Shown one piece after another: positions 3,511 through 32,000 of a stretch of DNA of 32,000 bases. The stretch comes from Candidatus Saccharimonadota bacterium (lineage in GTDB: Bacteria; Patescibacteriota; Patescibacteriia; 2-12-FULL-60-25). The notes below the pieces were generated by a model. It did no database searches, was not told where the DNA came from, and saw only the letters and a list, made by a program, of their open reading frames with translations. Every line of letters starts with the position of its first letter. The stretch's first letter is position 1. Both the position numbers and the translations under genes were made by a program. The stretch spans positions 120,001 through 152,000 of the forward strand of contig JALHOH010000002.1 of NCBI GenBank assembly GCA_022843095.1, read 5' to 3'.

Positions 3511-3566
3511 GCCCACCAATGGTCGAGCATACGGCTCGGACTCGCGTTGGTGGGTGTTTTGATAAG
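3511..3566 (+). repeat. Hairpin repeat element, copy H1 (inverted relative to H2/H3), terminator-like
   Basis: CCCACCAA (3512-3519) pairs with TTGGTGGG (3547-3554), with an inner CGAGC/GCTCG stem, followed by TGTTTTGATAAG. The reverse complement matches the 7744-7800 and 15555-15612 elements over most of its length. Confidence 0.65.
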
Positions 3567-7737: not shown

Positions 7738-7743
7738 AAACTG

Positions 7744-7800
7744 GAAATCAAACACCCACCAACGCGAGTCCGAGCCGTGTGCTCGGGGCGTGGTGGGGTT
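7744..7800 (-). repeat. Hairpin repeat element, copy H2; intrinsic-terminator-like for the small ORF at 7810-8088
   Basis: GAAATCAAACACCCACCAACGCGAGTCCGAGCCGTGTGCTCGGGGCGTGGTGGGGTT. Outer stem CCCACCA/TGGTGGG plus CGC/GCG; inner stem CCGAGC/GCTCGG. On the minus strand it is followed by GUGUUUGAUUUCC. By eye it differs from H3 by one substitution and one 1-nt indel. Confidence 0.7.
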
Positions 7801-7809
7801 GCATTCGCG

Positions 7810-8088
7810 CTAGCGAGTGGAAGGGTATGCGACAAATGTTCGGTTGTCGCTGGACTTGATGAGAGGGTATCGCCTCCCATCCGGGGCTTGTTCGAACCCT
7901 GCGAGGTACTCGCCTTTGGCCAGAGAAAGTGCTCCAGCGTCGTTGCAAGCGTCCTCGATCATTCGATGCGTCAGATACCCAGAAGCATCGCGGTGCGCTT
8001 GACGCTTATCTTCTCGCAATTCTGCCAAGGCTCGTGCGTACTCTTCGCTGTTTTCAGGGGACAAAAGAGATTGCTCTTGTTTCGTCAT
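7810..8088 (-). CDS. Small protein, paralog A of a three-member family (92 aa, unknown function)
   Basis: ATG 8088 is preceded by GGAGGAGGG. The block SGYLTHRMIEDACNDAGALSLAKGEYLAGFEQAPDGRRYPLIKSSDNRTFVAY aligns with AGYLVHQAREDSLFATGAINPGDEISGYEQKPDGGSYPIISTQDGATYVLY of 15627-15863 and with DLIDAGEIDTSKGEYLARFDLSGDRLVFEIF of 13667-13900. Confidence 0.7.
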   Translation of the reverse strand: MTKQEQSLLSPENSEEYARALAELREDKRQAHRDASGYLTHRMIEDACNDAGALSLAKGEYLAGFEQAPDGRRYPLIKSSDNRTFVAYPSTR

Positions 8089-8118
8089 TGATCCCTCCTC
8101 CAAAAATGTACAATCGTA

Positions 8119-8147
8119 AATCTAGCGTATTTTGGGGATTTTGTCAA
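8119..8147 (-). promoter_or_regulatory. Consensus promoter TTGACA - 17 nt - TAGATT (cassette copy A)
   Basis: Minus strand reads ccccTTGACAaaatccccaaaatacgcTAGATTtacgattgtacatttttGGAGGAGGG. About 60 bp is shared with 13901-13962 and 15864-15918. Confidence 0.7.
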
Positions 8148-8217
8148 GGGGTGAGGGGCGAAGGAACGCGTTTCGTTTTCTGCGTAGAATCTTCGCGTGT
8201 GATACACTTCCTCATAG

Positions 8218-13088: not shown

Positions 13089-13559
13089 ATGGCCAACGTC
13101 CAATACGTCTCCGCCGAACGGCTGGAGCTCCTCAAGCAAGAACTTAAAGAACTGAAGACGGTGAAGCGCAAGGAGCTGGTCGAGCGGATCGAGGCGGCAA
13201 AGGCGTTGGGCGATCTGTCTGAGAACGCGGAATACCATGAAGCCAAGGATGCGATGTCGCTGCTGGAAGGGCGCATCTTTGAACTGGATGAATTGTTCAA
13301 GAACGTCCAGGTGATCGAAGCGCCAGCGGCCGGGGACAAAACGGGGAACGTGCGTGTGGGTTCGACGGTGAAGGTCGAAGTGAACGGTAAAGAAAAAACG
13401 TTCCAGATTGTGGGATCGAACGAAGCGGATCCACTCACGGGCAAGATCTCCAATGAATCACCCATCGGAAGCGCGCTCTTGGGATCCAAGGCAGGAGAGG
13501 CGGTGGAGGTGACGACGCCAGGTGGCACGACCGTGTACACCATCAAACACGTGGAATAA
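13089..13559 (+). CDS. greA: Transcription elongation factor GreA
   Basis: The start MANVQYVSAERLELLKQELKELK...ALGDLSENAEYHEAKD...VRVGSTVKV is a typical GreA N-terminal coiled coil plus C-terminal FKBP-like domain. The track ORF begins upstream at 13041 with a non-ATG codon. Confidence 0.92.
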   Translation: MANVQYVSAERLELLKQELKELKTVKRKELVERIEAAKALGDLSENAEYHEAKDAMSLLEGRIFELDELFKNVQVIEAPAAGDKTGNVRVGSTVKVEVNGKEKTFQIVGSNEADPLTGKISNESPIGSALLGSKAGEAVEVTTPGGTTVYTIKHVE

Positions 13560-13560
13560 C

Positions 13561-13592
13561 AAAAAAGCCCCCTCTGTCATGGAGGGGTTTTG
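13561..13592 (+). terminator. Rho-independent terminator after greA
   Basis: AAAAAAG CCCCTC tgtcatg GAGGGG TTTTG: a 6-bp GC stem, a 7-nt loop and a T-run. The upstream A-run makes it potentially bidirectional. Confidence 0.75.
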
Positions 13593-13648
13593 AAAATCAA
13601 ATACCCCGCCGATCTACACGCACGTATTGCGTCTAGTCTCGGACGGGG
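13593..13648 (-). terminator. Divergent member of the hairpin element, downstream of small ORF B
   Basis: On the minus strand CCCCGTCCGA ... TCGGCGGGG is followed by TATTTGATTTTCAAAA. This is the same trailing G(U/G)UUUGAUUUUC box as at 7744-7760 and 15555-15570. Confidence 0.5.
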
Positions 13649-13666
13649 CTTAGCTTCAAAGAGAGT

Positions 13667-13900
13667 TTACTCTTTTTCTTCCGCTTGTTCCTTCGTGGGG
13701 CGGAAGATCTCGAAAACGAGGCGATCACCAGAGAGATCAAAGCGGGCAAGGTACTCGCCCTTGCTTGTGTCAATCTCTCCTGCGTCGATGAGATCCCTCT
13801 CTGCCATCTGTTTGGCAAAAAGCGGTGCAGCCTCCGTGTTTGCTTGCAACCGTCGCCTCTGCACGCTCTTCAACCACTCCTCATGCTCTGGGTCACTCAT
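13667..13900 (-). CDS. Small protein, paralog B of the three-member family (77 aa)
   Basis: ATG 13900 is preceded by GGAGGAGGGTGAG, with the same promoter and 5'UTR as copies A and C. It shares the DAG..(x)..KGEYLA(R/G)F block with paralog A. Confidence 0.65.
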   Translation of the reverse strand: MSDPEHEEWLKSVQRRRLQANTEAAPLFAKQMAERDLIDAGEIDTSKGEYLARFDLSGDRLVFEIFRPTKEQAEEKE

Positions 13901-13930
13901 CTCACCCTCCTCCAAAAAAGTACAATCGTA

Positions 13931-13959
13931 AATCTAGCGGATTTTGGGGATTTTGTCAA
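13931..13959 (-). promoter_or_regulatory. Consensus promoter TTGACA - 17 nt - TAGATT (cassette copy B)
   Basis: tgtcaa at 13954-13959 and aatcta at 13931-13936 on the plus strand, with a 17-nt spacer. Confidence 0.7.
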
Positions 13960-14047
13960 GGGGGAAGCGAGAAGAGGCGTAATGCGAGGGGGACGGGAAT
14001 CCTGGTTGTTTGCGCCCGGGCTTCTTCGCTGGCATGATGGCGTGCAT
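13960..14047 (+). promoter_or_regulatory. Conserved leader shared by lysS and serS (function unknown)
   Basis: Aligned by eye to 15915-16014, this region has identical blocks of 24, 34 and 11 nt. They are separated by three substitutions and one divergent 11-nt block, and the similarity ends at the start codons. Confidence 0.5.
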
Positions 14048-15554: not shown

Positions 15555-15612
15555 TGAAAATCAAACACCCACCAACGCGAGTCCGAGCCGTGTGCTCGTG
15601 GCGTGGTGGGGT
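15555..15612 (-). repeat. Hairpin repeat element, copy H3; terminator-like for the small ORF at 15627-15863
   Basis: GAAAATCAAACACCCACCAACGCGAGTCCGAGCCGTGTGCTCGTGGCGTGGTGGGGTT. On the minus strand the hairpin is followed by GUGUUUGAUUUUCAAAAAA. Confidence 0.7.
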
Positions 15613-15626
15613 TGCGCCGTCAGGGG

Positions 15627-15863
15627 TTAGCCTGAGGCAGTGGGAGCTTGGTACAGGACATACGTCGCTCCGTCTTGTGTTGAAATGATGGGATAACTGC
15701 CCCCATCAGGTTTCTGTTCGTAGCCAGAGATCTCGTCTCCGGGGTTGATCGCACCTGTTGCAAAGAGACTGTCCTCCCTGGCCTGATGAACGAGATACCC
15801 TGCAGCAGTACGGTCCGCAGCGCGGTAGATGGCTCGGAGACGTGCGTTTTTTTGGACACTCAT
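15627..15863 (-). CDS. Small protein, paralog C of the three-member family (78 aa)
   Basis: ATG 15863 is preceded by GGAGGAGGGTTTCTC. The sequence MSVQKNARLRAIYRAADRTAAGYLVHQAREDSLFATGAINPGDEISGYEQKPDGGSYPIISTQDGATYVLYQAPTASG aligns with paralog A. Confidence 0.7.
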   Translation of the reverse strand: MSVQKNARLRAIYRAADRTAAGYLVHQAREDSLFATGAINPGDEISGYEQKPDGGSYPIISTQDGATYVLYQAPTASG

Positions 15864-15885
15864 GAGAAACCCTCCTCCAAAAAAG

Positions 15886-15914
15886 TACAATCGTAAATCT
15901 ACCGGATTTTGGGG
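15886..15914 (-). promoter_or_regulatory. Consensus promoter TTGACA - 17 nt - TAGATT (cassette copy C)
   Basis: tgtcaa at 15909-15914 and aatcta at 15886-15891 on the plus strand, with a 17-nt spacer. Confidence 0.7.
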
Positions 15915-16014
15915 ATTTTGTCAAGGGGGAAGCGAGAAGAGGTGTAGCGCGAGGGGGACGGGAATCCTGGTTGTTTGCGCCCTTTTTGCGGCGCTGGCAT
16001 GATGACCCACATCT
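15915..16014 (+). promoter_or_regulatory. Conserved leader shared by serS and lysS (function unknown)
   Basis: See 13960-14047. The common sequence is GGGGGAAGCGAGAAGAGG.GTA..GCGAGGGGGACGGGAATCCTGGTTGTTTGCGCCC ... CTGGCATGATG. Confidence 0.5.
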
Positions 16015-17289: not shown

Positions 17290-18432
17290 ATGCCTCGCCA
17301 CAAGACCTGGGTGGAGGTCAGCAAACGCGCGCTCCTTGCAAATTACGAGGCGATGCGCGCGCTTGTCGCCCCGACACAGGTCATGGCGGTCGTGAAGGCA
17401 AACGCGTACGGCCATGGACTTGTAGAGGTCGCCTCAGCGCTGCAGGACGCGCAGGTGCCTTGGTTTGGCGTGGATTGGGCCGACGAAGCGCTGACGCTTC
17501 GGGCGAACGGGATTTCTGCCAAGATTCTGGTGCTTGGATACACCCCCGCCGAGCGGATGAAAGAATTGGTGGACGCGGAGATCTCGTTTGTCGTGTACAC
17601 GCAAGCCATGTTGGAAGCTGCGAGCGCCGCCGGGAACGCGGCGGGGAAGCGGGCACGCATCCATCTGAAAGTCGAAACCGGATTGCATCGCCAAGGGATT
17701 GGGCTTACGGAATTTGAGGCGTTTGTCGATCGAGCGTTGATGCTAACGCACGTCGAAATTGAGGGGATCTCCACGCACTACGCAAACATCGAAGATACGG
17801 AAGATGCATCGTATGCCACGCAACAACTTAAGGCGTTCCAGCGTGCCAACAGTATTTTACGACGCAAGACAGAAGGGCGCCCGCTGGTTGCTCATACGGC
17901 GTGCAGTGCCGCGGCGGCGCTCTTTCCTGAAACACGGTTTGATGTGGTGCGCGAGGGGATTATGTTGTACGGACTGTGGTCCAGCGAACGCACGGAACGC
18001 GCGGCAAAACGCGCACACCTGGATCTTGCTCTGGAACCTGTTTTAACGTGGAAAACGATTGTGGCACAGGTAAAACCCGTCAAAGCAGGTGAACCGGTGA
18101 GTTACGGCCTCACAGAACGGATGGTACGGGATGGATCCATCGCGGTGCTTCCCATCGGCTATGCGGACGGATTTGATCGCGTCGGGATGTCGGGGAAGGG
18201 GACGGTGCTGATTCGTGGACAGCGATGCAAGGTGATCGGACGTGTCTGTATGAATATGTGCATGGTCGACGTGTCACACGTGGAGGGGGCAGAAGAGGGG
18301 GACGAAGTGGTACTGCTTGGGACGCAAGGAAACAACCAAATTACGGCCGAAGAGCTGGCAGCACAGTGCGAAACCATCGCCTACGAAATCGTGGCGCGCA
18401 TCAATCCGTTGTTTCCGCGTACAATAATGTAA
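17290..18432 (+). CDS. alr: Alanine racemase
   Basis: The PLP-lysine motif AVVKANAYGHG is present, with later VREGIMLYGLWS and VSYG...IAVLPIGYADG. Length is typical. Confidence 0.9.
   Translation: MPRHKTWVEVSKRALLANYEAMRALVAPTQVMAVVKANAYGHGLVEVASALQDAQVPWFGVDWADEALTLRANGISAKILVLGYTPAERMKELVDAEISFVVYTQAMLEAASAAGNAAGKRARIHLKVETGLHRQGIGLTEFEAFVDRALMLTHVEIEGISTHYANIEDTEDASYATQQLKAFQRANSILRRKTEGRPLVAHTACSAAAALFPETRFDVVREGIMLYGLWSSERTERAAKRAHLDLALEPVLTWKTIVAQVKPVKAGEPVSYGLTERMVRDGSIAVLPIGYADGFDRVGMSGKGTVLIRGQRCKVIGRVCMNMCMVDVSHVEGAEEGDEVVLLGTQGNNQITAEELAAQCETIAYEIVARINPLFPRTIM
17848..17868 (+). repeat. 21-nt perfect direct repeat, copy 1 (inside alr)
   Basis: AACAGTATTTTACGACGCAAG is identical to 18435-18455 and contains the A-variant of the ATTTTGCGACGCAAG motif. 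Confidence 0.8.
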
Positions 18433-18434
18433 AG

Positions 18435-18455
18435 AACAGTATTTTACGACGCAAG
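18435..18455 (+). repeat. 21-nt perfect direct repeat, copy 2 (3 nt after the alr stop codon)
   Basis: AACAGTATTTTACGACGCAAG. It is followed by TCGT, which forms the hairpin ACGAC-GCAA-GTCGT (GNRA loop). Confidence 0.8.
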
Positions 18456-18536
18456 TCGTGGAAAAAAACCTCAAAAACAAAGAAGTAGAAAAAGTACCCG
18501 GCAATCGGAATCCCTGATAAACTAGGGGACAAGTCT

Positions 18537-19355
18537 ATGGCGGCACGGGAACATCCACGCGCAGTAAATTCCACCCCAAAACGAATCATCCTGGCGTTGT
18601 TTGGCGTCGGCGCGTTGATCGGTTGGTATTACGTGCTGATGATCAGTGACCTGTTTGCGGTGAAGGGGATAGAGGCGAGCGGACTCAAGACGCTGAGTCG
18701 TTATGACGTGGAAAGGGAAGTGCTGACCTACTTGGATACGCGAACGGGATGGCGGCCTTGGCACGCACGTCATCAGTGGTTCGTGGAAGGAGGGGCGTTA
18801 AAGGCGTTTCTTGAAGATCAGTTGTTTGTAGAACGCGTGGATATCGTATCCATCAAAAATATTTTACGACTCAACATCGTCGAGCGCGCAAGTAAGGTGA
18901 TCTTCTACTCACATAAACAGTATTACTGGGCCGATGCGCATGGCATCGTAACAGAGGAGATGCCTCTGGAAGAACGTAAGTTGGCGCAAGCGCGCATTCT
19001 TGGTCAGCGTCAGGCGCAATCCACGGATCCGCCGCTTATCCATCAAGACCTGGATGATTTGATTGATGTTGGATATCGCATCACCGACGCCAAAACCATG
19101 CGGCGTTGGATTGAAATCGTTTCTGATCTACAGCGTGCAGGTATTTTGTACCGCGAGTTTATACCGCCACGAGGAACCAGTACGAATGCCGGGTTTATTT
19201 CGCATGACGGTCATCGTGTCGTCTTTGATCTCACATCGCCACTGACACCACAGTTCGATACGTACGTGACCTGGCGTGAATCCAAGGAAGGTCGATCGAT
19301 TGAGGCGAAACAGGTCGATATACGCATCCCAGGCAAAATCTACCTCCAACCATAG
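18537..19355 (+). CDS. FtsQ/DivIB-like cell-division protein (TM anchor plus POTRA-like domain)
   Basis: N-terminal TM segment (IILALFGVGALIGWYYVLMI), then VKGIEASGLKTLSRYDVEREVLTYLD, which resembles a POTRA start. The gene neighbours alr in a cell-envelope context. Confidence 0.5.
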   Translation: MAAREHPRAVNSTPKRIILALFGVGALIGWYYVLMISDLFAVKGIEASGLKTLSRYDVEREVLTYLDTRTGWRPWHARHQWFVEGGALKAFLEDQLFVERVDIVSIKNILRLNIVERASKVIFYSHKQYYWADAHGIVTEEMPLEERKLAQARILGQRQAQSTDPPLIHQDLDDLIDVGYRITDAKTMRRWIEIVSDLQRAGILYREFIPPRGTSTNAGFISHDGHRVVFDLTSPLTPQFDTYVTWRESKEGRSIEAKQVDIRIPGKIYLQP

Positions 19356-25013: not shown

Positions 25014-25158
25014 AGAAAAGGCTTCCGTAGCGTATCAAGGACGGCTGGGCTTGCACAGGCGCGGAAACCTCGGTAGGTTGCGCCTTGCCGTGGATTTATC
25101 CACATTTCCGCGACACGCCCAGACATGGTATTGTCGCGAACAATAATTCTCCCTACGT

Positions 25159-25455
25159 ATGATGGCCTATAATCTCAACACCTCGACCGTAGACGAGGAG
25201 CTCGAACAAGAAGGATTCAGCATCCAGGATCTTGATGCCAAGCCCTCCAAGGATGACGATGAGGATGAAGAAGAAGTGGTAAAGGAAGGGTTGGAAGATG
25301 AAGAGGTCGATGGTGCGGAAAAGAAGGAAGCGACCGTTGAAGAAGAGGACGAGGAAGACTCCGACGACGATCTAAAACGCCTCGAACGCATGGCCGAAAA
25401 GGTCGGGATCGATGAAGACATGCTGAACCTCTCGGAAGAAGAGGAAAGTATCTAA
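25159..25455 (+). CDS. Small, extremely acidic protein (98 aa, Asp/Glu-rich)
   Basis: Contains runs such as DDDEDEEEVVKEGLEDEEVDG and VEEEDEEDSDDD. A hairpin terminator follows directly. The antisense ORFs are Ser-rich mirror artefacts. Confidence 0.6.
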   Translation: MMAYNLNTSTVDEELEQEGFSIQDLDAKPSKDDDEDEEEVVKEGLEDEEVDGAEKKEATVEEEDEEDSDDDLKRLERMAEKVGIDEDMLNLSEEEESI

Positions 25456-25456
25456 G

Positions 25457-25490
25457 CAAAAAACAACGCCCGTGTGGCGTTGTTTATTTA
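25457..25490. terminator. Bidirectional rho-independent terminator
   Basis: AAACAACGCC cgtgt GGCGTTGTTT (10-bp stem, 25461-25485) is flanked by an A-run on the left and ATTTAT on the right. On the minus strand it is followed by TTTTTGCTT. It overlaps the stop codon of 25484-25789. Confidence 0.75.
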
Positions 25491-25789
25491 TAGCCGATAT
25501 ACCTGAGATCCGATGGATTTCCTCTTCTTAAATCCCGTAAAGAAAAGATCACATTCGAGTAATCCATTCGAATCACGCCCTTCCCAATTTGTATCAGATG
25601 CCCCATACAACGCTCGTGAGCATCGCAGTGGAATTCCATCCGTGCACGGGTTTTAGGAAAGTTGACCAAATCTTCCCTCAGCAATATAAGCAAGGATCGT
25701 TCGGAGAAACGACCCCCTAGACTGTCAATCTTTTCTCGTAACCCGGGCGGTCCAATAATCACCCATAGACCATTCACTCCTCTGCTCAT
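25484..25789 (-). CDS. Hypothetical protein (101 aa) with a His/Cys cluster, immediately downstream of the long ORF-poor transcript
   Basis: There is a strong SD (AGAGAGGAGGTTCGC-ATG). The sequence contains FHCDAHERCMGH. The terminator follows directly. No family recognised. Confidence 0.6.
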   Translation of the reverse strand: MSRGVNGLWVIIGPPGLREKIDSLGGRFSERSLLILLREDLVNFPKTRARMEFHCDAHERCMGHLIQIGKGVIRMDYSNVIFSLRDLRRGNPSDLRYIGYK

Positions 25790-26766
25790 GCGAACCTCCT
25801 CTCTTTAAAGACCAGCGGGGCTGATCTGTACAGGGAGAAGCATGTGAGCGGCACATGCACCGTGGAATACATCCTCCTTACGTCTAGCCCAGCCGGCTTT
25901 TGTGTAGACCTCCTCGTAGGTCGCCTAGCTGCAAACCTGCTTCGCAGGTCGCCCACCGCCTTGAGGTCCCTTTGGGTCGGGAGGGGAAAGCAGATTGCTT
26001 AGCAGAGTCCCTTGGCAGAGTCCCTTTGGAGAGGGGGTCCCTGGGTGCTTCGCGCTGGAGATGGCCTGTAGCCACTACTCGTTGCGATCCCTTTGGCGGA
26101 GGTTATGACTAGAGTGTGAATGCAGCAGATGAAAGAATCATCAGCCCGTAAGGGGTCTCGGTGATCAAAGGCATCGTCGCGACCGAGATGTAGCCCAGCC
26201 ATCAAATAGGGAGACCTGAGTCCTGTACGCGCCAGGTTCGAGATGGCACTCGGCCATTCCCCTACTCGCCAACTTCGGGGAATAGCAGCTCGAACGTGTC
26301 GAGTCATTCGTACAGCACTCTTCGGACGTTTCTTTCCGTCCGCGTGGGGTGCCTGTTGATGAGTGTTGGTGCGGACGGGTGCTACGGCACCCGTCCCCCT
26401 TCCCTCACACAGATCCCTTCCGCCCCAGAGCCAGGTCTTTGGCTTGGGCATAGCATCGAGGCGAACGGTTCGCGCCTCACCAAGGAGAGGACCCCTTAGT
26501 CAGACGCGAACCGTCGAGGGAAAAGGTTCCACGCCGCCGCTCAGCCATCCTGTGGGGATTTCCCCTCCGGAGAAGGCGGGTACAAGACAGAATGCGTGCG
26601 CACGGGGGAGAACGGAAGGATCGCCGCCCGAAAGCGTTGATCCCCTTTTCTTTCGAAAAGGCTCAAATCCCATTACAAAAAGGAGGGTCTGCAACCGGCT
26701 TCCGCCGACAACATCACCTCCTCCCTGCTGTGAAGCGTGAAGAACTTCTCCTTCGCCTCATCAACA
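25790..26766 (-). ncRNA. Candidate large structured non-coding RNA or very long structured leader (unclassified)
   Basis: About 980 nt lie downstream of a consensus promoter with only short, compositionally odd ORFs in all six frames. Many perfect stems are present: a 10-bp stem at 26373-26396, CCUUUUC-GAAA-GAAAAGG at 26644-26661, GGUUCGCG/CGCGAACC, and the long-range pair GGGCUGAU/AUCAGCCC (25817-25824 with 26139-26146). GNRA and UUCG loops and G-U pairs work only on the minus strand. Confidence 0.4.
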
Positions 26767-26772
26767 AGAAGC

Positions 26773-26801
26773 AGAATACGGCAGAATAAAATGTTTGTCA
26801 A
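26773..26801 (-). promoter_or_regulatory. Consensus promoter TTGACA - 17 nt - TATTCT
   Basis: Minus strand reads TTGACAaacattttattctgccgTATTCT, inside an AT-rich patch (26770-26900). Confidence 0.6.
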
Positions 26802-26895
26802 GTCTTTGTTTACATTAGTATTAAAATTATCTAATTCTACTTATTTTTTTATAAAAAACTGTCGAAATATACGGACGTTTATGAACATAGAGGAA

Positions 26896-26931
26896 CGAAA
26901 AAACGCGCCGTCCCCTCCGGGAGCAGCGCGT
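26896..26931 (-). terminator. Rho-independent terminator (minus strand)
   Basis: Minus strand reads ACGCGCtgCTCCCggaGGGGacgGCGCGT followed by TTTTTTCGTT. Confidence 0.6.
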
Positions 26932-27092
26932 CTTTGTTAGTACATAATCAGGAGGTAGCAGAGCCAGTTAAGCGACTGTGCATGCCCCTGAATCATGTGT
27001 TGGATGGTTGCCATACATGATTGGTCGTGCGGGAAGCCCGGGCGACAGTAGGAATAAAGGGGCGATGTTCTCTACCCCATCATGGGGGAGAA
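26896..27092 (-). ncRNA. Candidate small RNA (about 190 nt) bounded by its own promoter and terminator
   Basis: The promoter at 27099-27127 and the terminator at 26896-26931 delimit it. Internal hairpins include AATCATGT/ACATGATT (26991-27022) and CCCC-atcat-GGGG (27075-27087). It contains a CCUCCU anti-SD-like box. No ORF has an SD. Confidence 0.35.
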
Positions 27093-27098
27093 CGGGAG

Positions 27099-27127
27099 AG
27101 GCTATCCCAAAATGACAGGTTTGTCAA
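27099..27127 (-). promoter_or_regulatory. Promoter TTGACA - 17 nt - TAGCCT
   Basis: Minus strand reads cccgTTGACAaacctgtcattttgggaTAGCCT, located just downstream of the terminator of the 27202-28008 gene. Confidence 0.5.
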
Positions 27128-27142
27128 CGGGGAGACCTTATC

Positions 27143-27174
27143 AAATGAAAAAGGAAGGCAGAGTTGCCTTCCTT
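27143..27174 (-). terminator. Rho-independent terminator of the 27202-28008 gene
   Basis: AAGGAAGGCA gagt TGCCTTCCTT is a 10-bp stem. On the minus strand it is followed by TTTTCATTTG. Confidence 0.7.
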
Positions 27175-27201
27175 TGAGGACACGTGGGGAGAACCGAAGC
27201 T

Positions 27202-28008
27202 CTACCCGCGCTCCTCGAGCCTGCAGACGTGGCACGCCATCTTGAGACCGTGGTGGTCTCGGTAGACGTACGCTGACCCCGTGGGATGGCGGTGCGCCCG
27301 CTCGAAACGGGTCGCCATCGAGACCGGCGCCGCGTCGAGCAGCGTCTCCCGGATCTCTTCGTAGAGACCCAGGAGCCAGATCTGCTCGGACTTCGTGAGC
27401 TCCTTCATCTGGCGACCGCTCGCGCGATCGAACCAGAAGAACCGCTCACCGACACGGCCCGGGACGCGCGTCCCGCACCGCGCCCACGCGGCGTCGAGCA
27501 GCGCGCCGCGCTCCTCACCCGCCCGGCCGTAGGCCGTGGGGAGGAGCGACGTCGACTTCGGCTTCTCGTGGAAACGGAGGATCCCCTCCTCGTCCATGTA
27601 AAAGCCGGACACCGGGTACGACTGGAGGAACTTCGTCCCATCCAGGGCGTCCCGGCCGTGGTATCGCCGGTACCACGCGCCGACGTAGGTGTCGGCCGGG
27701 AACGCCTGGCAGAACGCGGCGTACACCACGCCCCAAGCCTTCCCGACCTGCGCGCGCATCCAGCGCCTCACCACATTGCCGCGGAAGGACACGTCCCTTC
27801 GCGCCGGCATCCGCCGCGGGTCCACCTTCCCCTCGAGGATGGTCGTCTTGATGAACGTCTCATCCTCGAGCTTCGAAGTCATGGAGACGACGCGGCATCC
27901 GCGCACCCAGGCCTTCGCCTGGTGACGCTCGCGCCGCCGCTCCTCGCGGCCGAACGCACGACCGTACCGGCTCGTGCGACCCCCCTCCAACGCCTTCTGC
28001 AATCCCAT
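27202..28008 (-). CDS. Orphan protein (268 aa) with C/G-ending codon usage unlike the core genes
   Basis: The long ORF has a protein-like composition rich in W/Y/F (GAWYRRYHGRDALDG, FFWFDRASGRQMKELTKSEQIWLLGLYEEIRE). Start ATG 28008 (MGLQKALEGG) is preferred over the track TTG at 28062, which lies inside the palindromic motif. The antisense ORF 27286-28095 is an Arg/Pro-rich artefact. Confidence 0.6.
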   Translation of the reverse strand: MGLQKALEGGRTSRYGRAFGREERRRERHQAKAWVRGCRVVSMTSKLEDETFIKTTILEGKVDPRRMPARRDVSFRGNVVRRWMRAQVGKAWGVVYAAFCQAFPADTYVGAWYRRYHGRDALDGTKFLQSYPVSGFYMDEEGILRFHEKPKSTSLLPTAYGRAGEERGALLDAAWARCGTRVPGRVGERFFWFDRASGRQMKELTKSEQIWLLGLYEEIRETLLDAAPVSMATRFERAHRHPTGSAYVYRDHHGLKMACHVCRLEERG

Positions 28009-28040
28009 TTTACCCTTCCCTTCTCTGTGGTTTTTTACCG

Positions 28041-28065
28041 TTTGCGACCACTTGCGTCGCAAAAT
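28041..28065 (-). promoter_or_regulatory. ATTTTGCGACGCAAG motif (copy 2) overlapping an 8-7-8 inverted repeat TTTGCGAC-N7-GTCGCAAA
   Basis: The motif is the reverse complement of 28051-28065. The inverted-repeat arms are 28041-28048 and 28056-28063. It lies about 40 nt upstream of ATG 28008. Confidence 0.45.
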
Positions 28066-28154
28066 ATTTTTTCTACTAATCCTGCAGGACGCTGAATGAT
28101 GAATTCAACGCCCATTTGAATTCCCATCTACGTTGCCGATGGGGAGGCGAAGTG

Positions 28155-28385
28155 TTACTTCCAGAGACCCTGCACCATCCTTTTGAACCCCGTGATGACC
28201 AGGGCGAGGATTAATGCTGAGGCGAGTAGATGTTCCGCGATGGGAAACACCTCCTTCCAGGCGGCCTGGAATCCTCCTTCACGGTTGAATGCCGCCAAGA
28301 CGACGGCAATTGCAACTGTGATAATCCCCACTTTTTGATACAGGGCGGTGTTTGAACCCCCCTTTCCCTTCTTCTGTGCTGCCAT
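28155..28385 (-). CDS. Small membrane protein (76 aa, 2 TM segments)
   Basis: GGAGG lies 4 nt before ATG 28385. Sequence: MAAQKKGKGGSNTALYQKVGIITVAIAVVLAAF...LLASALILALVITGF. The longer track ORF (to 28811) overlaps the next gene in another frame and is rejected. Confidence 0.55.
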   Translation of the reverse strand: MAAQKKGKGGSNTALYQKVGIITVAIAVVLAAFNREGGFQAAWKEVFPIAEHLLASALILALVITGFKRMVQGLWK

Positions 28386-28409
28386 GAGACCTCCACACGA
28401 CGTATCACT

Positions 28410-28424
28410 TCTTGCGTCGCAAAA
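28410..28424 (-). promoter_or_regulatory. ATTTTGCGACGCAAG motif, copy 3
   Basis: Exact 15-mer on the minus strand, 25 nt upstream of ATG 28385. Confidence 0.45.
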
Positions 28425-28483
28425 TGTTACACCGTGTGGAAGTGCCGTTCTCGTTGCTGAACGGCAAGCAGTTCCCCTTCTTC

Positions 28484-28759
28484 CTAGGGTGGCGCCGGAG
28501 GCTTCCCCCAGGGCGTCCAGAGAAATCTCCAGAACGCCACGAGCTTCCCCCAGATCGCTCCAAGAAGCCACAGAAGTGGCTTCCAAACCACCCAGACCAG
28601 GATGACCCCGATCAGGACCGTCCCCCACTTGAAGGGGGCTGAGAAGAGATCCCCTGCCTTGCTCGACGCACCGAACACGGCAAGGAGCACGACCACGGTG
28701 ATCCACACCGCGGTCGCCAGAGCGAGGCCATTGAGAATGAGTTCGAGGAATGCCTCCAT
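28484..28759 (-). CDS. Small Trp-rich membrane protein (91 aa, about 3 TM segments)
   Basis: The SD AGGAGGGG precedes ATG 28759. Sequence: LELILNGLALATAVWITVVVLLAVF, WGTVLIGVILVWVVWKPLLWLLGAIWGKLVAFWRFLW. Confidence 0.6.
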   Translation of the reverse strand: MEAFLELILNGLALATAVWITVVVLLAVFGASSKAGDLFSAPFKWGTVLIGVILVWVVWKPLLWLLGAIWGKLVAFWRFLWTPWGKPPAPP

Positions 28760-28793
28760 GGCATCCCCTCCTTTCTGCTGGTTGACCCAGCAA

Positions 28794-28827
28794 CTTTTTA
28801 GAGCGATCCAACGATCCCTCTAAAAAG
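28794..28827. promoter_or_regulatory. Perfect 10-bp inverted repeat with 14-nt spacer in the 5'UTR of the membrane-protein operon
   Basis: CTTTTTAGAG (28794-28803) and CTCTAAAAAG (28818-28827) form the arms. The spacer contains the direct repeat CGATCC x2. It lies between the promoter at 28873-28901 and ATG 28759. Confidence 0.5.
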
Positions 28828-28872
28828 CCGCATGATCAATAAAAACTGGGCGGTTCTGTAAGTGGAAACAGG

Positions 28873-28901
28873 AATATACGAGATTATTCCTTTTTTGTCA
28901 A
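28873..28901 (-). promoter_or_regulatory. Consensus promoter TTGACA - 17 nt - TATATT
   Basis: Minus strand reads ggcTTGACAaaaaaggaataatctcgTATATT, in an AT-rich patch. Confidence 0.6.
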
Positions 28902-29011
28902 GCCTAAGTAGACACTATTTTCAAAAAACAAGAAGTTCAGATTTATTGGCCTTTTTTAAAAATCGTCCCGAGAGACCAAAAAATGGAGTTTTCTTAAACG
29001 TATACCAACGA

Positions 29012-29040
29012 TTGACAATTTTGTTTATTTCTGCTAGAGT
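29012..29040 (+). promoter_or_regulatory. Consensus promoter TTGACA - 17 nt - TAGAGT
   Basis: TTGACA at 29012-29017 and TAGAGT at 29035-29040. It is divergent from the 28873-28901 promoter, about 110 bp away. Confidence 0.6.
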
Positions 29041-29046
29041 GCAGAC

Positions 29047-29584
29047 ACGCTCAAAAACCAGGTGTTCCAGGGCAGACGTCGACGATGGATCCGCATCTTC
29101 GACGCCCGGTCTGGAAATGGCCAGAACACGCGCAGATCTCTGCGTAGGGCTAGATAGGCAATCAGCCTGTGACGGCGCCCTGCAGTGGACGATGCGTATC
29201 GGGAAAGGAGGTCCGCATCGGTGGACCATGGTGAAAATCAAAAAATGGCGACGAGACCACTCGCCGTCCTCTGCACGCCCATGCCGATCGGGATATCCGG
29301 CGGCGCGAGCGTGCGGAAGTATCAAAAAAATGAGGAGGGAGTCGACACGCTCGTCTCCCCCCTTTGCATCTTGTCGCACAGTGCAGGGAGTCCTCTCCCT
29401 GCACAAAGCGATCTAGATCGGCCGAGTCTGACACCGCCGCTTCAGCGGCTTGTCCAAGACTCGGCCGAATGCGCCCACCCCTGCGTCGCGAAGTTCGCGG
29501 CCGGCCACGTGGAGGCCTAACATGTTGGGCGGCGGCACCTGATCCACCCCCGGTAGCAATACGGCTACCGGGGTTCTTTTTTTT
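29047..29584 (+). ncRNA. Candidate structured non-coding RNA (about 540 nt) bounded by a consensus promoter and a strong terminator
   Basis: No ORF here has an SD, and the overlapping track ORFs are Arg/Ser/Pro-rich. Perfect 10-bp stems occur at GTGCAGGGAG-tcct-CTCCCTGCAC (about 29380-29403) and GGCCGAGTCT...AGACTCGGCC (about 29419-29465), the latter enclosing GCCGC-ttca-GCGGC. Several further 5-6-bp stems are present. Confidence 0.45.
29548..29584 (+). terminator. Strong rho-independent terminator
   Basis: CCCCGGTAGC aatacg GCTACCGGGG is followed by TTCTTTTTTTT. The T-run overlaps the stop codon of the convergent TrmB-family gene. Confidence 0.8.
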
Positions 29585-30326
29585 ACTTCATCCGCGCATG
29601 GCACGTCTCCATGTAGTCAAACATGGCGCGCATAGTCTCAACCAGGTCGATGCTTTCGATGATCACTGAAATTTGCTTACCTTTATACGTGGATAACGCG
29701 ACACGATTACCATAAACAAAGACATGTCCAGAAAAACGCATCGTGTCCGGTAAACGAAAAACTTCCACTGTTTGTGTGACAGGTTTTATTTCTTGTTCTT
29801 TTGCGAACAAGAACGTCCTCATTTTTGGAGAAAACTTTCGTATCATATCTCCAAATGACTGAAGTGTGCTCCGTGGAATATACTTCAGCAACTCATCCAA
29901 ATTTCCGAATTCATCGATGTACGGCGTTTTGGAGCGTAATACGTCTTCTTGAATCGCCTTCATCGCCTCTGGACCCTCAAACATCTTTACAACCGGTTTT
30001 TCTCCCCGCTGCACAAGCTTCAGCTCGTGGACGGATGCCTCTACTTCGCGCAACGTCGCCTCCATCTGCTTCACACGTGCATGCACGAACGAAGACAACC
30101 GTTCCGGCGATTCCGCCTGAAACAACTTCTTCTTCCCCTTCTCCACCGAACTCATGAGACCGACCCGCGTAAGCGATTCAATAACGGCGTAGGTGGTCAC
30201 GCGAGAGACCTTCGCCTTCTTTGCTAGCACCTGCACCGTAGACGCCCCAAGCTCAAGCGCAGAAAGATACACCTGCGCTTCGCTTTCCGAAAACCCCATG
30301 GAACGTAATGTTTTGACCCATTGCAT
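29583..30326 (-). CDS. TrmB-family (winged-helix) transcriptional regulator
   Basis: From ATG 30326: MQWVKTLRSMGFSESEAQVYLSALELGASTVQVLAKKAKVSRVTTYAVIESLTRVGLMSSVEKGKKKLF, a typical TrmB N-terminal HTH. The upstream extension of the track ORF (to 30536) overlaps the divergent gene and is not used. Confidence 0.75.
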   Translation of the reverse strand: MQWVKTLRSMGFSESEAQVYLSALELGASTVQVLAKKAKVSRVTTYAVIESLTRVGLMSSVEKGKKKLFQAESPERLSSFVHARVKQMEATLREVEASVHELKLVQRGEKPVVKMFEGPEAMKAIQEDVLRSKTPYIDEFGNLDELLKYIPRSTLQSFGDMIRKFSPKMRTFLFAKEQEIKPVTQTVEVFRLPDTMRFSGHVFVYGNRVALSTYKGKQISVIIESIDLVETMRAMFDYMETCHARMK

Positions 30327-30419
30327 ATACAGAGGATCATATCGCGTTCTCCCCGCAAAGGATAGTCTCCCCATTGACCAATCTTCGGTTTCTTGCTTCT
30401 CTTTCTGCAGGAGGAACCC

Positions 30420-30866
30420 ATGGAAAACCCGCCTCGTTTCTTTCTCCATCAGAACATGGTCCCAGCCGCGCTCCGCGACGGCATCCAACGCCTGTTCGGC
30501 CTTCCGAACTTCGACCCGCTCCCCTCTATCGAGCATCCGCCGCAGTACCTCATCGTCTGCGTGAAGCTCGCCGAGCTTCCCTGCACCTACCCCCTGAACG
30601 TCCGGGGGTTCGAGGAGCGTCCGATGGGATCAAGCGACGGCCGTGCCTTCAAACGGGAGCTCCAGGATGCGCTGAAGGACGGCCTTGTGACGACGCAGGC
30701 CACGAGGGAGCACTACCGCTTCTCCGTCGTGGATCGTGGCACCGAGGCGGTCTTCGAGCTCGTGCTGGGTACCTTTGACCCGGACACGAACGTCCGGACA
30801 CCCGCAACCAAGCTCGTCTCCCTTCACCTTCTCTGCAAGGGACTGGTCTCCATCCCGATGCTCTAA
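30420..30866 (+). CDS. Orphan protein (148 aa) with C-ending codon bias
   Basis: GGAGG lies 5 nt before ATG 30420. The codon run ctc gcc gag ctt ccc tgc acc tac ccc ctg aac gtc cgg ggg ttc gag gag differs from the core genes' preference for gtg, ttg, gat and ttt. A terminator follows. Confidence 0.55.
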   Translation: MENPPRFFLHQNMVPAALRDGIQRLFGLPNFDPLPSIEHPPQYLIVCVKLAELPCTYPLNVRGFEERPMGSSDGRAFKRELQDALKDGLVTTQATREHYRFSVVDRGTEAVFELVLGTFDPDTNVRTPATKLVSLHLLCKGLVSIPML

Positions 30867-30867
30867 C

Positions 30868-30904
30868 CAAAACCCCCGCCAACTTGCGGGGGTTTCTTTG
30901 TTTT
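30868..30904. terminator. Bidirectional rho-independent terminator
   Basis: CCAAAA CCCCCGC caactt GCGGGGG TTTCTTTGTTTT lies between the convergent 30420-30866 gene and the RNR gene. Confidence 0.8.
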
Positions 30905-30913
30905 ACTCTCACT

Positions 30914-32000
30914 TCATTGGCACACCGCGCATTCTTCCGTCGCGATATCTCGCTTTTGCGTCTCCTGCGTGATCTTTGTTGCCTCAATAGGCGCGCTGGA
31001 ACGGAGGTAGTAAAGCGACTTCATTCCCAGTTTCCATGCAAGCAGGTGCACATCATGCAGATATTTCCCCGAGATCGGCGTCTGGAAGAACAGGTTGATG
31101 GACTGCGCCTGATCGATCCACGGCTGGCGATCCGCCGCCTGCTGCACGATCTCGCGCATATTCATCTCATACGCCGTTCGGAACACTTTGCGCTCTTCCT
31201 CGGACAGCCCCGGCACATTGATGACGCTCCCCTTGTCCGCGATGATCTGCTTCCACACCTCCGGCGCATTCATCCCTTTCTTCGCAAGCAGTTGATCGAG
31301 GTACTTGTTTTTGACAAGGAAACTCCCCGACAACGTCTTCTGCAAATACGCGTTCCCCGAGATGGGCTCGACGCACGGTGTCGCCTCCCCACAGATAAAC
31401 GCCGTAGACGCGGTTGGCTGGACACTCGTCACATACGTGTTGCGACGCGTGCCTCCATCCAACGGAAGTCCGCGTTCCTTCCCCAGCCGTTCGGACGCCT
31501 TCCGCGCATACGTCCCGATCCGTTCAAAGATCTGCTTGTTGATGAGCCGTGCCTGCAAACTTTCAAACGGCACCATCTTGGACATGAGATAGCCGTGGTA
31601 TCCCATCACCCCAAGCCCGATGGAACGTTCGTGCTTCACGGAATTGATGGACTTTCTATATTCCACCCCATCCGCCATCTCGCAAAACGTGTCCAAGTTG
31701 TTATCCAACGCCTTCACACACAAATAGGCGATCTCCTCGACCTCATCTTTCCATTCCTCAAACGTTTCGAGGTTCAAGTTTCCCAGACAGCACACCGCCG
31801 TACGATCGTTCGTCGTGGGCAACACGATTTCGGTGCAAAGGTTGCTTTGACGCACAAACAGCCCCTTCTCCTGATGGTGCGCCGGCACCGCCTTGTTCAC
31901 GGTATCGATAAACAAGAGATACGGCTCCCCGGTTTCTGCACGGATCGTCAGGATCTTGCGCCAGATGTCGAGCGCCGGAAGTTCCTTTGTGACGGTCTGA
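30914..32000 (-). CDS. Ribonucleoside-diphosphate reductase alpha subunit, class I (NrdA/NrdE type), 5' part outside the window
   Basis: SNLCTEIVLPT (catalytic Cys loop), GLGVMGYHG, SLYYLRS (class I Tyr-Tyr pair) and the C-terminal CAVCQ redox pair. The frame stays open to base 32000 (..ETGEPYLLFIDTVN..). Confidence 0.88.
   Translation of the reverse strand, partial: QTVTKELPALDIWRKILTIRAETGEPYLLFIDTVNKAVPAHHQEKGLFVRQSNLCTEIVLPTTNDRTAVCCLGNLNLETFEEWKDEVEEIAYLCVKALDNNLDTFCEMADGVEYRKSINSVKHERSIGLGVMGYHGYLMSKMVPFESLQARLINKQIFERIGTYARKASERLGKERGLPLDGGTRRNTYVTSVQPTASTAFICGEATPCVEPISGNAYLQKTLSGSFLVKNKYLDQLLAKKGMNAPEVWKQIIADKGSVINVPGLSEEERKVFRTAYEMNMREIVQQAADRQPWIDQAQSINLFFQTPISGKYLHDVHLLAWKLGMKSLYYLRSSAPIEATKITQETQKRDIATEECAVCQ

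Follow-up and report, generated by a model that had tools for sequence, protein, structure and literature searches.

We identified the segment 25457–30904 of a 32-kb stretch of bacterial DNA as a probable composite, in which a TrmB-family regulator gene and a neighbouring structured RNA form one part, a conserved module, a variable cargo slot another, and a separate orphan insertion the last. A promoter back to back with that of the RNA reads into the slot, by which any newcomer would be expressed. The stretch (contig JALHOH010000002.1, positions 120,001 to 152,000; G+C content 0.558), called the window throughout, is assigned to an uncultivated, Uhrbacteria-like lineage of the Candidate Phyla Radiation (CPR), and the segment lies in it between the genes for RmuC and for the large subunit of ribonucleotide reductase (RNR). 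Our reading draws on direct observations of synteny, shifts in composition, presence and absence between strains, predicted structure and the enrichment of a very short open reading frame (mini-ORF). Judged from its sequence, the locus appears to be an integrase-free variable locus and not a classical island, and it holds a candidate for an undescribed class of RNA.

We are considerably less sure of a broader reading, which we offer tentatively. Uhrbacteria-like CPR bacteria would possess an undescribed module of two genes, in which the TrmB gene is paired with a convergent, strongly promoted and terminated, folded RNA that lacks ORFs other than the mini-ORF. These RNAs would belong to a ribosome-engaging class, 0.3–1.4 kb in length and evolving too fast to be aligned, with a promoter, a terminator and a sequestered mini-ORF in common. 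The divergent partner of the RNA promoter would serve in addition as an expression port for newly acquired genes.

Conserved gene order and mosaic composition

The relatives of this lineage are distant. The best RmuC relatives are 62–69% identical and include metagenome-assembled genomes (MAGs) of Candidatus Uhrbacteria and Patescibacteria, several of which carry the wrong label 'Gammaproteobacteria'; no RmuC of >75% identity was found in GTDB representatives or JGI metagenomes. TrmB homologues come from sources labelled Uhrbacteria or Patescibacteria, the closest being 60% identical. The lineage is isolated except for a second strain (strain 2), represented by two short Logan contigs of run SRR31730576, L001 and L058, with DNA 95–99% identical to the window (98–99% for L001).

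The order found in relatives is RNR, TrmB, a gap with an ORF-less unit, a gene for an acidic protein (divergent from RmuC) and RmuC, as seen in loci L004–L009, L018, L024, L026, L011/L029 and L056/57. In at least 12 related loci, TrmB lies next to one or both of RNR and RmuC, with 60–330 nt between RNR and TrmB in relatives, and the acidic-protein gene beside RmuC is also kept. Two relatives (L003 and L031) have no TrmB, and in these RNR stands directly beside the acidic-protein gene and RmuC. The TrmB-to-RmuC gap measures 0.46 kb in L002, about 1–2.2 kb in others, 3.3 kb in L026 and 4.6 kb here, and sensitive blastn and tblastn searches with window 25014–29583 against the relatives matched the acidic-protein gene only. 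An earlier note, made from the letters of this DNA alone, had suggested an old, domesticated acquisition or a hypervariable locus. The latter description is right for 25490–28901, where the relatives are completely different and where strain 2 lacks 25490–26891 and has further indels. The note had also treated everything between the flanking genes as one accessory segment with no housekeeping gene; this fails for TrmB and for the ORF-less unit adjoining it (unit B), whose positions are conserved. On the evidence of synteny, 29012–30374 (unit B and TrmB) is core and not accessory, TrmB being counted as core because it is syntenic in most relatives.

The regulator had been recognized as TrmB-type from its sequence, and a helix–turn–helix match at E=1e-12 supports this. 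The match is to PF01978, the N-terminal winged-helix TrmB domain (E=1.1e-12; score 48 bits, cut-off 25.6), which is also carried by 205 TrmB homologues at E<1e-20. In the long ORF, whose end is at 30536, the matches to homologues begin at residue 55–77. The regulator did not prove equivalent to the sugar-sensing TrmB/TrmBL1: the NCBIfam equivalogs scored 24–29 bits against cut-offs of 600–650, with an alignment that covered the N-terminal 130 residues only and left the C-terminal sensing domain unmatched. Between the two strains TrmB shows 11 synonymous and two nonsynonymous codon changes, indicating purifying selection, and RmuC shows 19 and none.

Composition was compared with 22 core genes of the window, in which the G+C content of third codon positions (GC3) has a mean of 0.648 (s.d. 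0.043, range 0.553–0.731). ORF 27202–28008 has a GC3 of 0.900, ORF 30420–30866 of 0.812, ORF 28484–28759 of 0.783 and ORF 25484–25789 of 0.461, and the cargo deviates from the core genes by 3 to 6 s.d.; the GC3 of TrmB (0.557) is within the core range. The earlier note had named the first two of these ORFs as deviant and had pointed to AT-rich intergenic patches, both of which the comparison bore out, the G+C content falling to 0.24 at 26800–26899 and to 0.32 at 28900–28999. As the segment as a whole has the G+C content of the window (0.556 versus 0.558), it is a mosaic and not uniformly shifted.

Taken as a whole, 25457–30904 is very improbable as one old, domesticated horizontal acquisition between rmuC and RNR. 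The mosaic composition would fit such an origin, as would the orphan status of all its proteins except TrmB and the arrangement in the two TrmB-less relatives. However, most relatives carry TrmB and the adjoining ORF-less unit at this position, purifying selection acts on TrmB, and the parts of the segment vary in GC3 (0.46, 0.64, 0.78, 0.90 and 0.81). The remainder is neither old nor stable: its contents differ between strains that are 98–99% identical, and its genes appear to evolve under relaxed constraint. For 29012–30374 a single acquisition is already contradicted.

Consensus promoters are strongly enriched, with eight matches to TTGACA-N17/18-TAnnnT in the window against 0.15 expected, and nine to the looser TTGACA-N17/18-TA. 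The enrichment and the total of nine had been reported correctly in the earlier note, but its count of five for the segment falls to four, at 26801(−), 27127(−), 28901(−) and 29012(+). Similarly, the two terminators that it placed at the edges are both present, as G+C-rich hairpins with T-runs at 25461–25485 and 30870–30895, but each has a qualifying T-run on one strand only; that they act bidirectionally is plausible from their sequences.

The absence of an integrase, a tRNA and flanking direct repeats, as first described, was confirmed by domain, ARAGORN and repeat searches of the window. No integrase or recombinase was detected, and Pfam, PHROG, NCBIfam and PADLOC matched no ORF of the segment except TrmB; ARAGORN found neither tRNA nor tmRNA in the window, no direct repeats flanking the segment were found, and blastn of the segment against phage and plasmid sequences gave no match. 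The island-type traits present are a composition that departs from the core and a cassette whose presence varies between strains. The locus is comparable to genomic islets and integrase-free hot spots, which likewise have variable, compositionally deviant orphan genes between syntenic core genes, differ between strains by presence and absence, and lack an integrase, tRNA or repeat. Unlike these, the slot described here is tiny (0.5–4.6 kb), bounded by terminators and fed by a resident consensus promoter, and its neighbour in this reduced CPR genome is a structured RNA whose position is conserved. The genomes of CPR bacteria are tiny, and the locus suggests that reduced genomes may keep dedicated, promoter-equipped slots for trying foreign or new genes, with turnover visible at 98–99% identity.

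The ORF-less unit beside TrmB

Unit B has an extended −10 consensus promoter at its start and a strong terminator at its end. In nearly every relative, the sequence directly 3′ of TrmB is also ORF-less and has a TTGACAAA...TGnTAnnnT promoter aimed at TrmB. These TrmB-adjacent units of relatives are 330–1400 nt long, and in many relatives the promoter is paired, back to back, with another consensus promoter ~130 nt away. The ORF-less gap is kept in loci with other flanking genes (L051–55, L060 and L062), where TrmB neighbours SMC/TROVE genes (L051–53), a DUF6847 gene (L054/55) or the gene for the CCA-adding enzyme (L060/L062), and the link is thus to TrmB, not to RNR or RmuC. The locus suggests that a large structured RNA, one recognized by no RNA family library, accompanies a regulator gene that hundreds of Patescibacteria have.

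In L051–L053 (5783–7941), a stretch of ~2.1 kb that lacks called genes and contains divergent consensus promoters separates the closest TrmB (60% identical) from a TROVE/Ro60 gene downstream. Y RNAs are ligands of Ro60 proteins, but no Y RNA model reached its gathering threshold.

The three ORF-less units proposed by the earlier note (A, B and C) all exist, and all are predicted to fold better than shuffled sequences, with z-scores of −5.8, −9.1 and −4.5, respectively. Nine of nine tested units of relatives did so too when folded as the inferred transcript (z of −2.6 to −8.2), and in each case the reverse complement folded less well. The z-scores of core genes are near zero; in tiles along the window, z is near zero over 1–25500 and consistently negative over 26100–29700.

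The comparison of strains is consistent with selection on the RNA. Unit B of strain 2 has lost 87 nt (29245–29331), corresponding to two hairpins between two ATCAAAAAA repeats, and its hairpin core at 29418–29468 is inverted. Outside the inverted hairpin, about six to eight of ten stem substitutions keep pairing on the + strand, as G–U (mostly) or G–C; chance alone would preserve about one third to one half. A 62-codon ORF within unit B shows nonsynonymous changes only, and its stop is lost or shifted in strain 2, a pattern which shows that it is no protein gene. In the group of L006, L008 and L009, 143 pairs are predicted and 14 have compensatory changes, including four in the terminator, which suggests, but does not establish, selection at the RNA level.

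Known RNAs did not account for the units. At the gathering threshold, units A, B and C had no match in Rfam 15, and at E≤5 they gave terminator-type chance matches only; in 19 related loci, the sole Rfam match was one tRNA. Unit B was rejected as RNase P RNA, tmRNA, 6S RNA or signal recognition particle RNA, as no model scored and no signature motif was seen. A hidden conserved small protein was also rejected, since translation of the units in all six frames revealed no peptide common to different lineages. IMG/VR contained no exact 24-mer from unit A or unit B. To our knowledge the non-coding RNA content of CPR bacteria is almost unexplored, and we found no description of a TrmB-linked RNA in CPR in the literature.

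Close to its 3′ end, unit B carries a Shine–Dalgarno (SD) sequence and a mini-ORF (29522–29542) that would encode MLGGGT, the stop codon lying 5 nt before the terminator stem. The 130-nt 3′ stretch around it is 100% identical in strain 2, whereas the rest of unit B differs by 4–5%. The units share the pattern GGAGG(C), 4–9 nt, ATG, 4–6 codons and stop, with predicted peptides MASDK, MVSEN, MACGDP, MFETDH, MGHGGH, MTGFH, MAGHTG, MVSGG, MGCG and MGGGCG in relatives. Under a strict rule (SD plus an ORF of ≤6 codons), it occurs in 9 of 12 representative units, against 0.19 of 12 in dinucleotide shuffles and 0 of 12 in reverse complements, an enrichment that is statistically strong at the level of sequence. 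Looser fits are seen in L059 (GAGG-type SD, 6 codons) and L062 (7 codons). No peptide is common to different unit groups, and the use of all three stop codons makes recoding unlikely. In most relatives, the mini-ORF lies 270–350 nt from the unit end.

Several points weigh against our composite reading. The mRNA of the cargo gene o27202, which is coding, has a z-score of −8.3, and its antisense strand is low too; with low z across 26100–29700, predicted structure does not mark RNA units specifically. About ten groups of units are distinguishable, which can be aligned neither with each other nor with unit B (MAFFT gave no meaningful alignment), and units of different lineages may be analogous fillers of one position, with only the position and organization conserved. 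Covariation is thin, coming from three sequences at 86% identity in which many predicted pairs are broken. The units of the L008 group, L026 and L054 fail the strict mini-ORF rule, the pattern was noticed post hoc, and some of the 12 units are related to one another. In most predicted folds the GGAGG is paired (its unpaired probability averages 0.21, that of the unit 0.38), and it could be an arm of a conserved helix instead of a ribosome-binding site; a paired SD would suit a ribosome-binding site that is sequestered as well as a helix with a structural role only. Finally, the contigs of strain 2 are short Logan assemblies.

A less interesting origin of the units is conceivable, and we regard it as doubtful: they may be filler rich in hairpins, the remains of genes or a side effect of divergent promoters, with SD-ATG-stop as an eroded gene stump or a helix arm. 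Such filler would explain the absence of sequence conservation between lineages and the fast modular turnover between strains (the deletion and the inverted hairpin), and it is consistent with the mostly paired SD, with low z-scores that extend over coding cargo, and with mini-ORFs that lie, in 9–10 units, 270–350 nt from the unit end, a distance comparable to the length of a small gene. However, independent erosion to 4–6 codons in at least seven non-alignable lineages is unlikely, folding is always stronger on the transcript strand, and stem substitutions keep pairing on the + strand. Moreover, consensus promoters and terminators are kept in every lineage, and the 3′ 130 nt of unit B are perfectly conserved beside 4–5% divergence.

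If the module reading holds, unit B would act as an RNA, and ribosome loading at the mini-ORF would remodel or stabilize it; in this genome, loading could also set the level of terminator read-through into antisense TrmB. That the fold or stability of unit B responds to ribosome loading is the hypothesis we favour, but our confidence in it is low, since relatives do not generally share the geometry. A specific form of it, in which unit B is a translation-sensing attenuator, seems improbable to us. Here a ribosome on the mini-ORF would block folding of the terminator, and antisense read-through would lower TrmB expression. In the window the arrangement suits this model, with 5 nt between the stop and the stem; the part with mini-ORF and terminator is perfectly conserved between strains, and in every lineage the unit converges with TrmB. 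In most relatives, however, the mini-ORF is 270–350 nt upstream of the terminal hairpin, and there is no downstream sense gene to be controlled. If ribosomes do bind the mini-ORF, the unit would represent a new coupling of RNA structure or stability to translation.

Among known systems, the closest are the large structured RNAs OLE, GOLLD, ROOL, HEARO and raiA of Rfam, which are also several hundred nucleotides long, ORF-less, structured, provided with their own promoter and terminator, and confined to one lineage. The units described here differ from them in matching no Rfam model, in lacking sequence conservation across lineages, in holding an SD-AUG mini-ORF and in being linked to a TrmB-family gene. 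The erm and cat leader peptides and the lambda bar minigenes combine an SD with a very short ORF whose peptide sequence is unconserved. The mini-ORF of the window resembles such attenuators and minigenes in that its stop adjoins a terminator hairpin; unlike leader peptides, it has no same-strand gene downstream, TrmB being convergent in all lineages, and it lies deep in a long structured RNA, far from the terminator in most relatives. REP/BIME palindromes, like unit B, are hairpin-rich DNA between convergent genes, where strains differ by hairpin deletion or inversion. Here, in contrast, the hairpins are unique (those of units A, B and C are unrepeated in the 32-kb window, the sole sequence covered), the unit comes with a consensus promoter of its own, its two strands fold unequally, and G–U pairs are preserved on one strand.

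The variable slot and its cargo

From the comparison of loci, the slot between the unit B promoter and the acidic-protein gene is variable, with a length of 0.5–4.6 kb across relatives. In this genome it holds the genes for two small membrane proteins and for a high-GC orphan whose family also occurs in viral contigs (o27202), together with a 195-nt RNA unit (unit C) and a 1.4-kb cassette (Table 1). The cassette, 25490–26891, is missing from strain 2: identity with L001 stops at 25489, and ~40 unrelated nt stand between the terminator of the acidic-protein gene and the hairpin at 26903–26935. It comprises a consensus promoter, an ORF-poor leader of ~980 nt (unit A), a 101-aa ORFan with a strong SD (o25484) and a terminator. 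o25484 has the lowest codon adaptation in the window, only itself was matched among 5.8 billion proteins, and its coding status is uncertain. The cassette was considered, and rejected, as a group I or group II intron, a retron, an insertion sequence element or a miniature inverted-repeat transposable element: there is no reverse transcriptase or transposase, no terminal repeat and no Rfam intron match.

Unit A has a z-score of −2.65 on the opposite (+) strand and contains a 13-codon mini-ORF with an SD at 26714–26673 (−). The motif CCAAAGGGAC occurs three times within 25966–26096 (−), where a 13-nt tandem CTTAGCAGAGTCC/CTTGGCAGAGTCC was also observed; by analogy, these GGA-containing repeats resemble protein-titrating RNAs of the CsrB/RsmY type. 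Unit C spans from the promoter at 27127–27099 to the terminator hairpin at 26935–26903; of its strain substitutions, one is in a stem, with pairing kept, and three are in loops.

The two tiny membrane proteins of the earlier note are both hydrophobic, with KD19 maxima of 2.5 and 2.2. In strain 2, the gene for the 76-aa protein has a 145-nt deletion (28206–28350). The gene for the 91-aa protein (o28484) is 8% divergent, with 11 synonymous and six nonsynonymous codon changes, and o27202 shows six synonymous and eight nonsynonymous changes. Going by these codon changes, the cargo genes are under relaxed constraint.

The orphan o27202 matched only itself among 5.8 billion clustered proteins, and a full HMMER scan yielded 11 weak relatives (E 2e-6 to 1e-3; 227–285 aa) that share the motifs RRWLxxQVGRxWDxVY and YVDExGILR. 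One of the 11, P0010, was a repeat-protein false positive and was left out of the refined alignment. A pattern scan located members of the family on four IMG/VR viral contigs, about 10 to 480 kb in length; in one case the neighbours were an HNH-like and a ligase-like ORF. These viral homologues are 23–25% identical to o27202. No match was found in Pfam, PHROG, PADLOC or NCBIfam, and a profile search of PDB sequences was empty. The AlphaFold2 model has a pLDDT of 62, and Foldseek found no PDB match for it at E≤0.001.

These viral relatives raise the question of whether the cargo (28901–27150) is a phage remnant or 'moron', that is, two holin-like membrane proteins and a phage-family protein that stayed behind after prophage loss. 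The occurrence of the family in viral contigs (once beside HNH-like and ligase-like ORFs), the two small membrane proteins and the foreign composition would agree with this. We nevertheless consider it unlikely, as integrase, att repeats, structural genes and PHROG matches are absent, blastn and tblastn were empty against 50,697 phage records, and the viral homologues are only weakly similar. A search of the orphan proteins against phages and plasmids had been proposed in the earlier note; tblastn of o27202 and o30420 against both gave no match. High-GC relatives of the same bacterial clade, with a GC3 of about 0.9, are equally plausible donors; since the GC3 of o27202 (0.90) equals that of high-GC clade members (L006 and L009), the donor could be a related CPR bacterium or a phage of such a bacterium.

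Under our preferred composite reading, the cargo would have arrived by horizontal transfer. Because no integrase is involved, we infer fixation by homologous or illegitimate recombination after DNA uptake, between terminator-bounded intergenic sites. The slot genes of relatives also deviate in composition from their own core genes. In three high-GC relatives, the slot position taken here by o27202 is occupied by another orphan (L006 8417–9469, L009 8386–9456 and L007 307–1320) of 337–356 aa, mutually 38% identical and without a Pfam match; that of L006 was compared with o27202 and is unrelated.

A motif, A(A/G)TATTTT(A/G)CGACGCAAG, was observed in five copies, each oriented toward the downstream gene, at 17847–17880, 18434–18467 and 18854–18887 (+) and at 28051–28068 and 28411–28428 (−). 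The last two lie 43 nt and 26 nt before the starts of o27202 and of the 76-aa membrane protein, respectively. The motif can fold as a hairpin with a GCAA loop and may be an operator or an RNA element.

On the other side of TrmB, the 148-aa orphan o30420 is absent from relatives and present in strain 2, and from this distribution it is taken to be a separate, lineage-specific small insertion between RNR and TrmB. It had no tblastn match in phages or plasmids, and its exact sequence was not in a collection of 15 billion proteins.

Table 1. Features of the segment, in window coordinates (z, predicted folding relative to shuffled sequences)
Feature	Position	Strand	Remarks
Terminator hairpin after acidic-protein gene	25461–25485		10-bp stem, T-run on − strand; left edge of variable slot and cassette
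101-aa ORFan (o25484)	25484–25789	−	SD GAGGAGG-N5-ATG; GC3 0.46
Strain-variable cassette, 1.4 kb	25490–26891	−	Own promoter to terminator; no terminal repeats
Unit A, ~980-nt G+C-rich, ORF-poor leader RNA (predicted)	25790–26766	−	z −5.8
Cassette consensus promoter, TTGACA-17-TATTCT	26801→26773	−	Inside the 24% G+C patch
Unit C, ~195-nt ORF-less predicted transcript	26897–27092	−	z −4.5; present in strain 2
o27202, 268-aa orphan	27202–28008	−	G+C 0.69, GC3 0.90; terminator 27175–27150
76-aa two-helix membrane protein	28155–28385	−	SD GGAGG-N4-ATG
91-aa membrane protein (o28484)	28484–28759	−	First gene of cargo operon
Back-to-back consensus promoters, 111 nt apart	28873–29040		28901→28873 (−) faces cargo; 29012→29040 (+) faces unit B
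Unit B, ~535-nt ORF-less RNA (predicted)	29046–29582	+	z −9.1; convergent with TrmB
SD and 6-codon mini-ORF	29511–29542	+	GGAGG-N6-ATG TTG GGC GGC GGC ACC TGA; in unit B
Unit B intrinsic terminator	29548–29573	+	Shared with TrmB 3′ end
TrmB-family helix–turn–helix regulator	29583–30374	−	Core gene
148-aa orphan (o30420)	30420–30866	+	GC3 0.81; between RNR and TrmB; terminator 30870–30895 follows

Other observations in the window

The gene for the class I RNR large subunit (window 30914–32000, − strand) runs in frame beyond the window, and its 333-aa ORF is the C-terminal half only. The strongest folding outside the segment is that of tile 13501–13800, with a z-score of −6.3. A G+C-rich hairpin of 48–61 nt (CCCACCAACGCGAGTCCGAGCC...GGTGGG) is repeated in both orientations at 3512–3559, 7742–7802 and 15555–15615, and resembles a shared terminator element.

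Three of the consensus promoters outside the segment are copies of a single one (TTGACAAAATCCCCAAAATCCGCTAGATT), at 8072–8151, 13884–13963 and 15849–15928 (−), which also share a 5′ untranslated region and the SD GGAGGAGGG. Each copy precedes a small ORF on the − strand (92, 77 and 78 aa) that sits antisense between core genes of the + strand; the three ORFs have the motifs KGEYLA.F and GYEQ.PDG in common and no match in Pfam.

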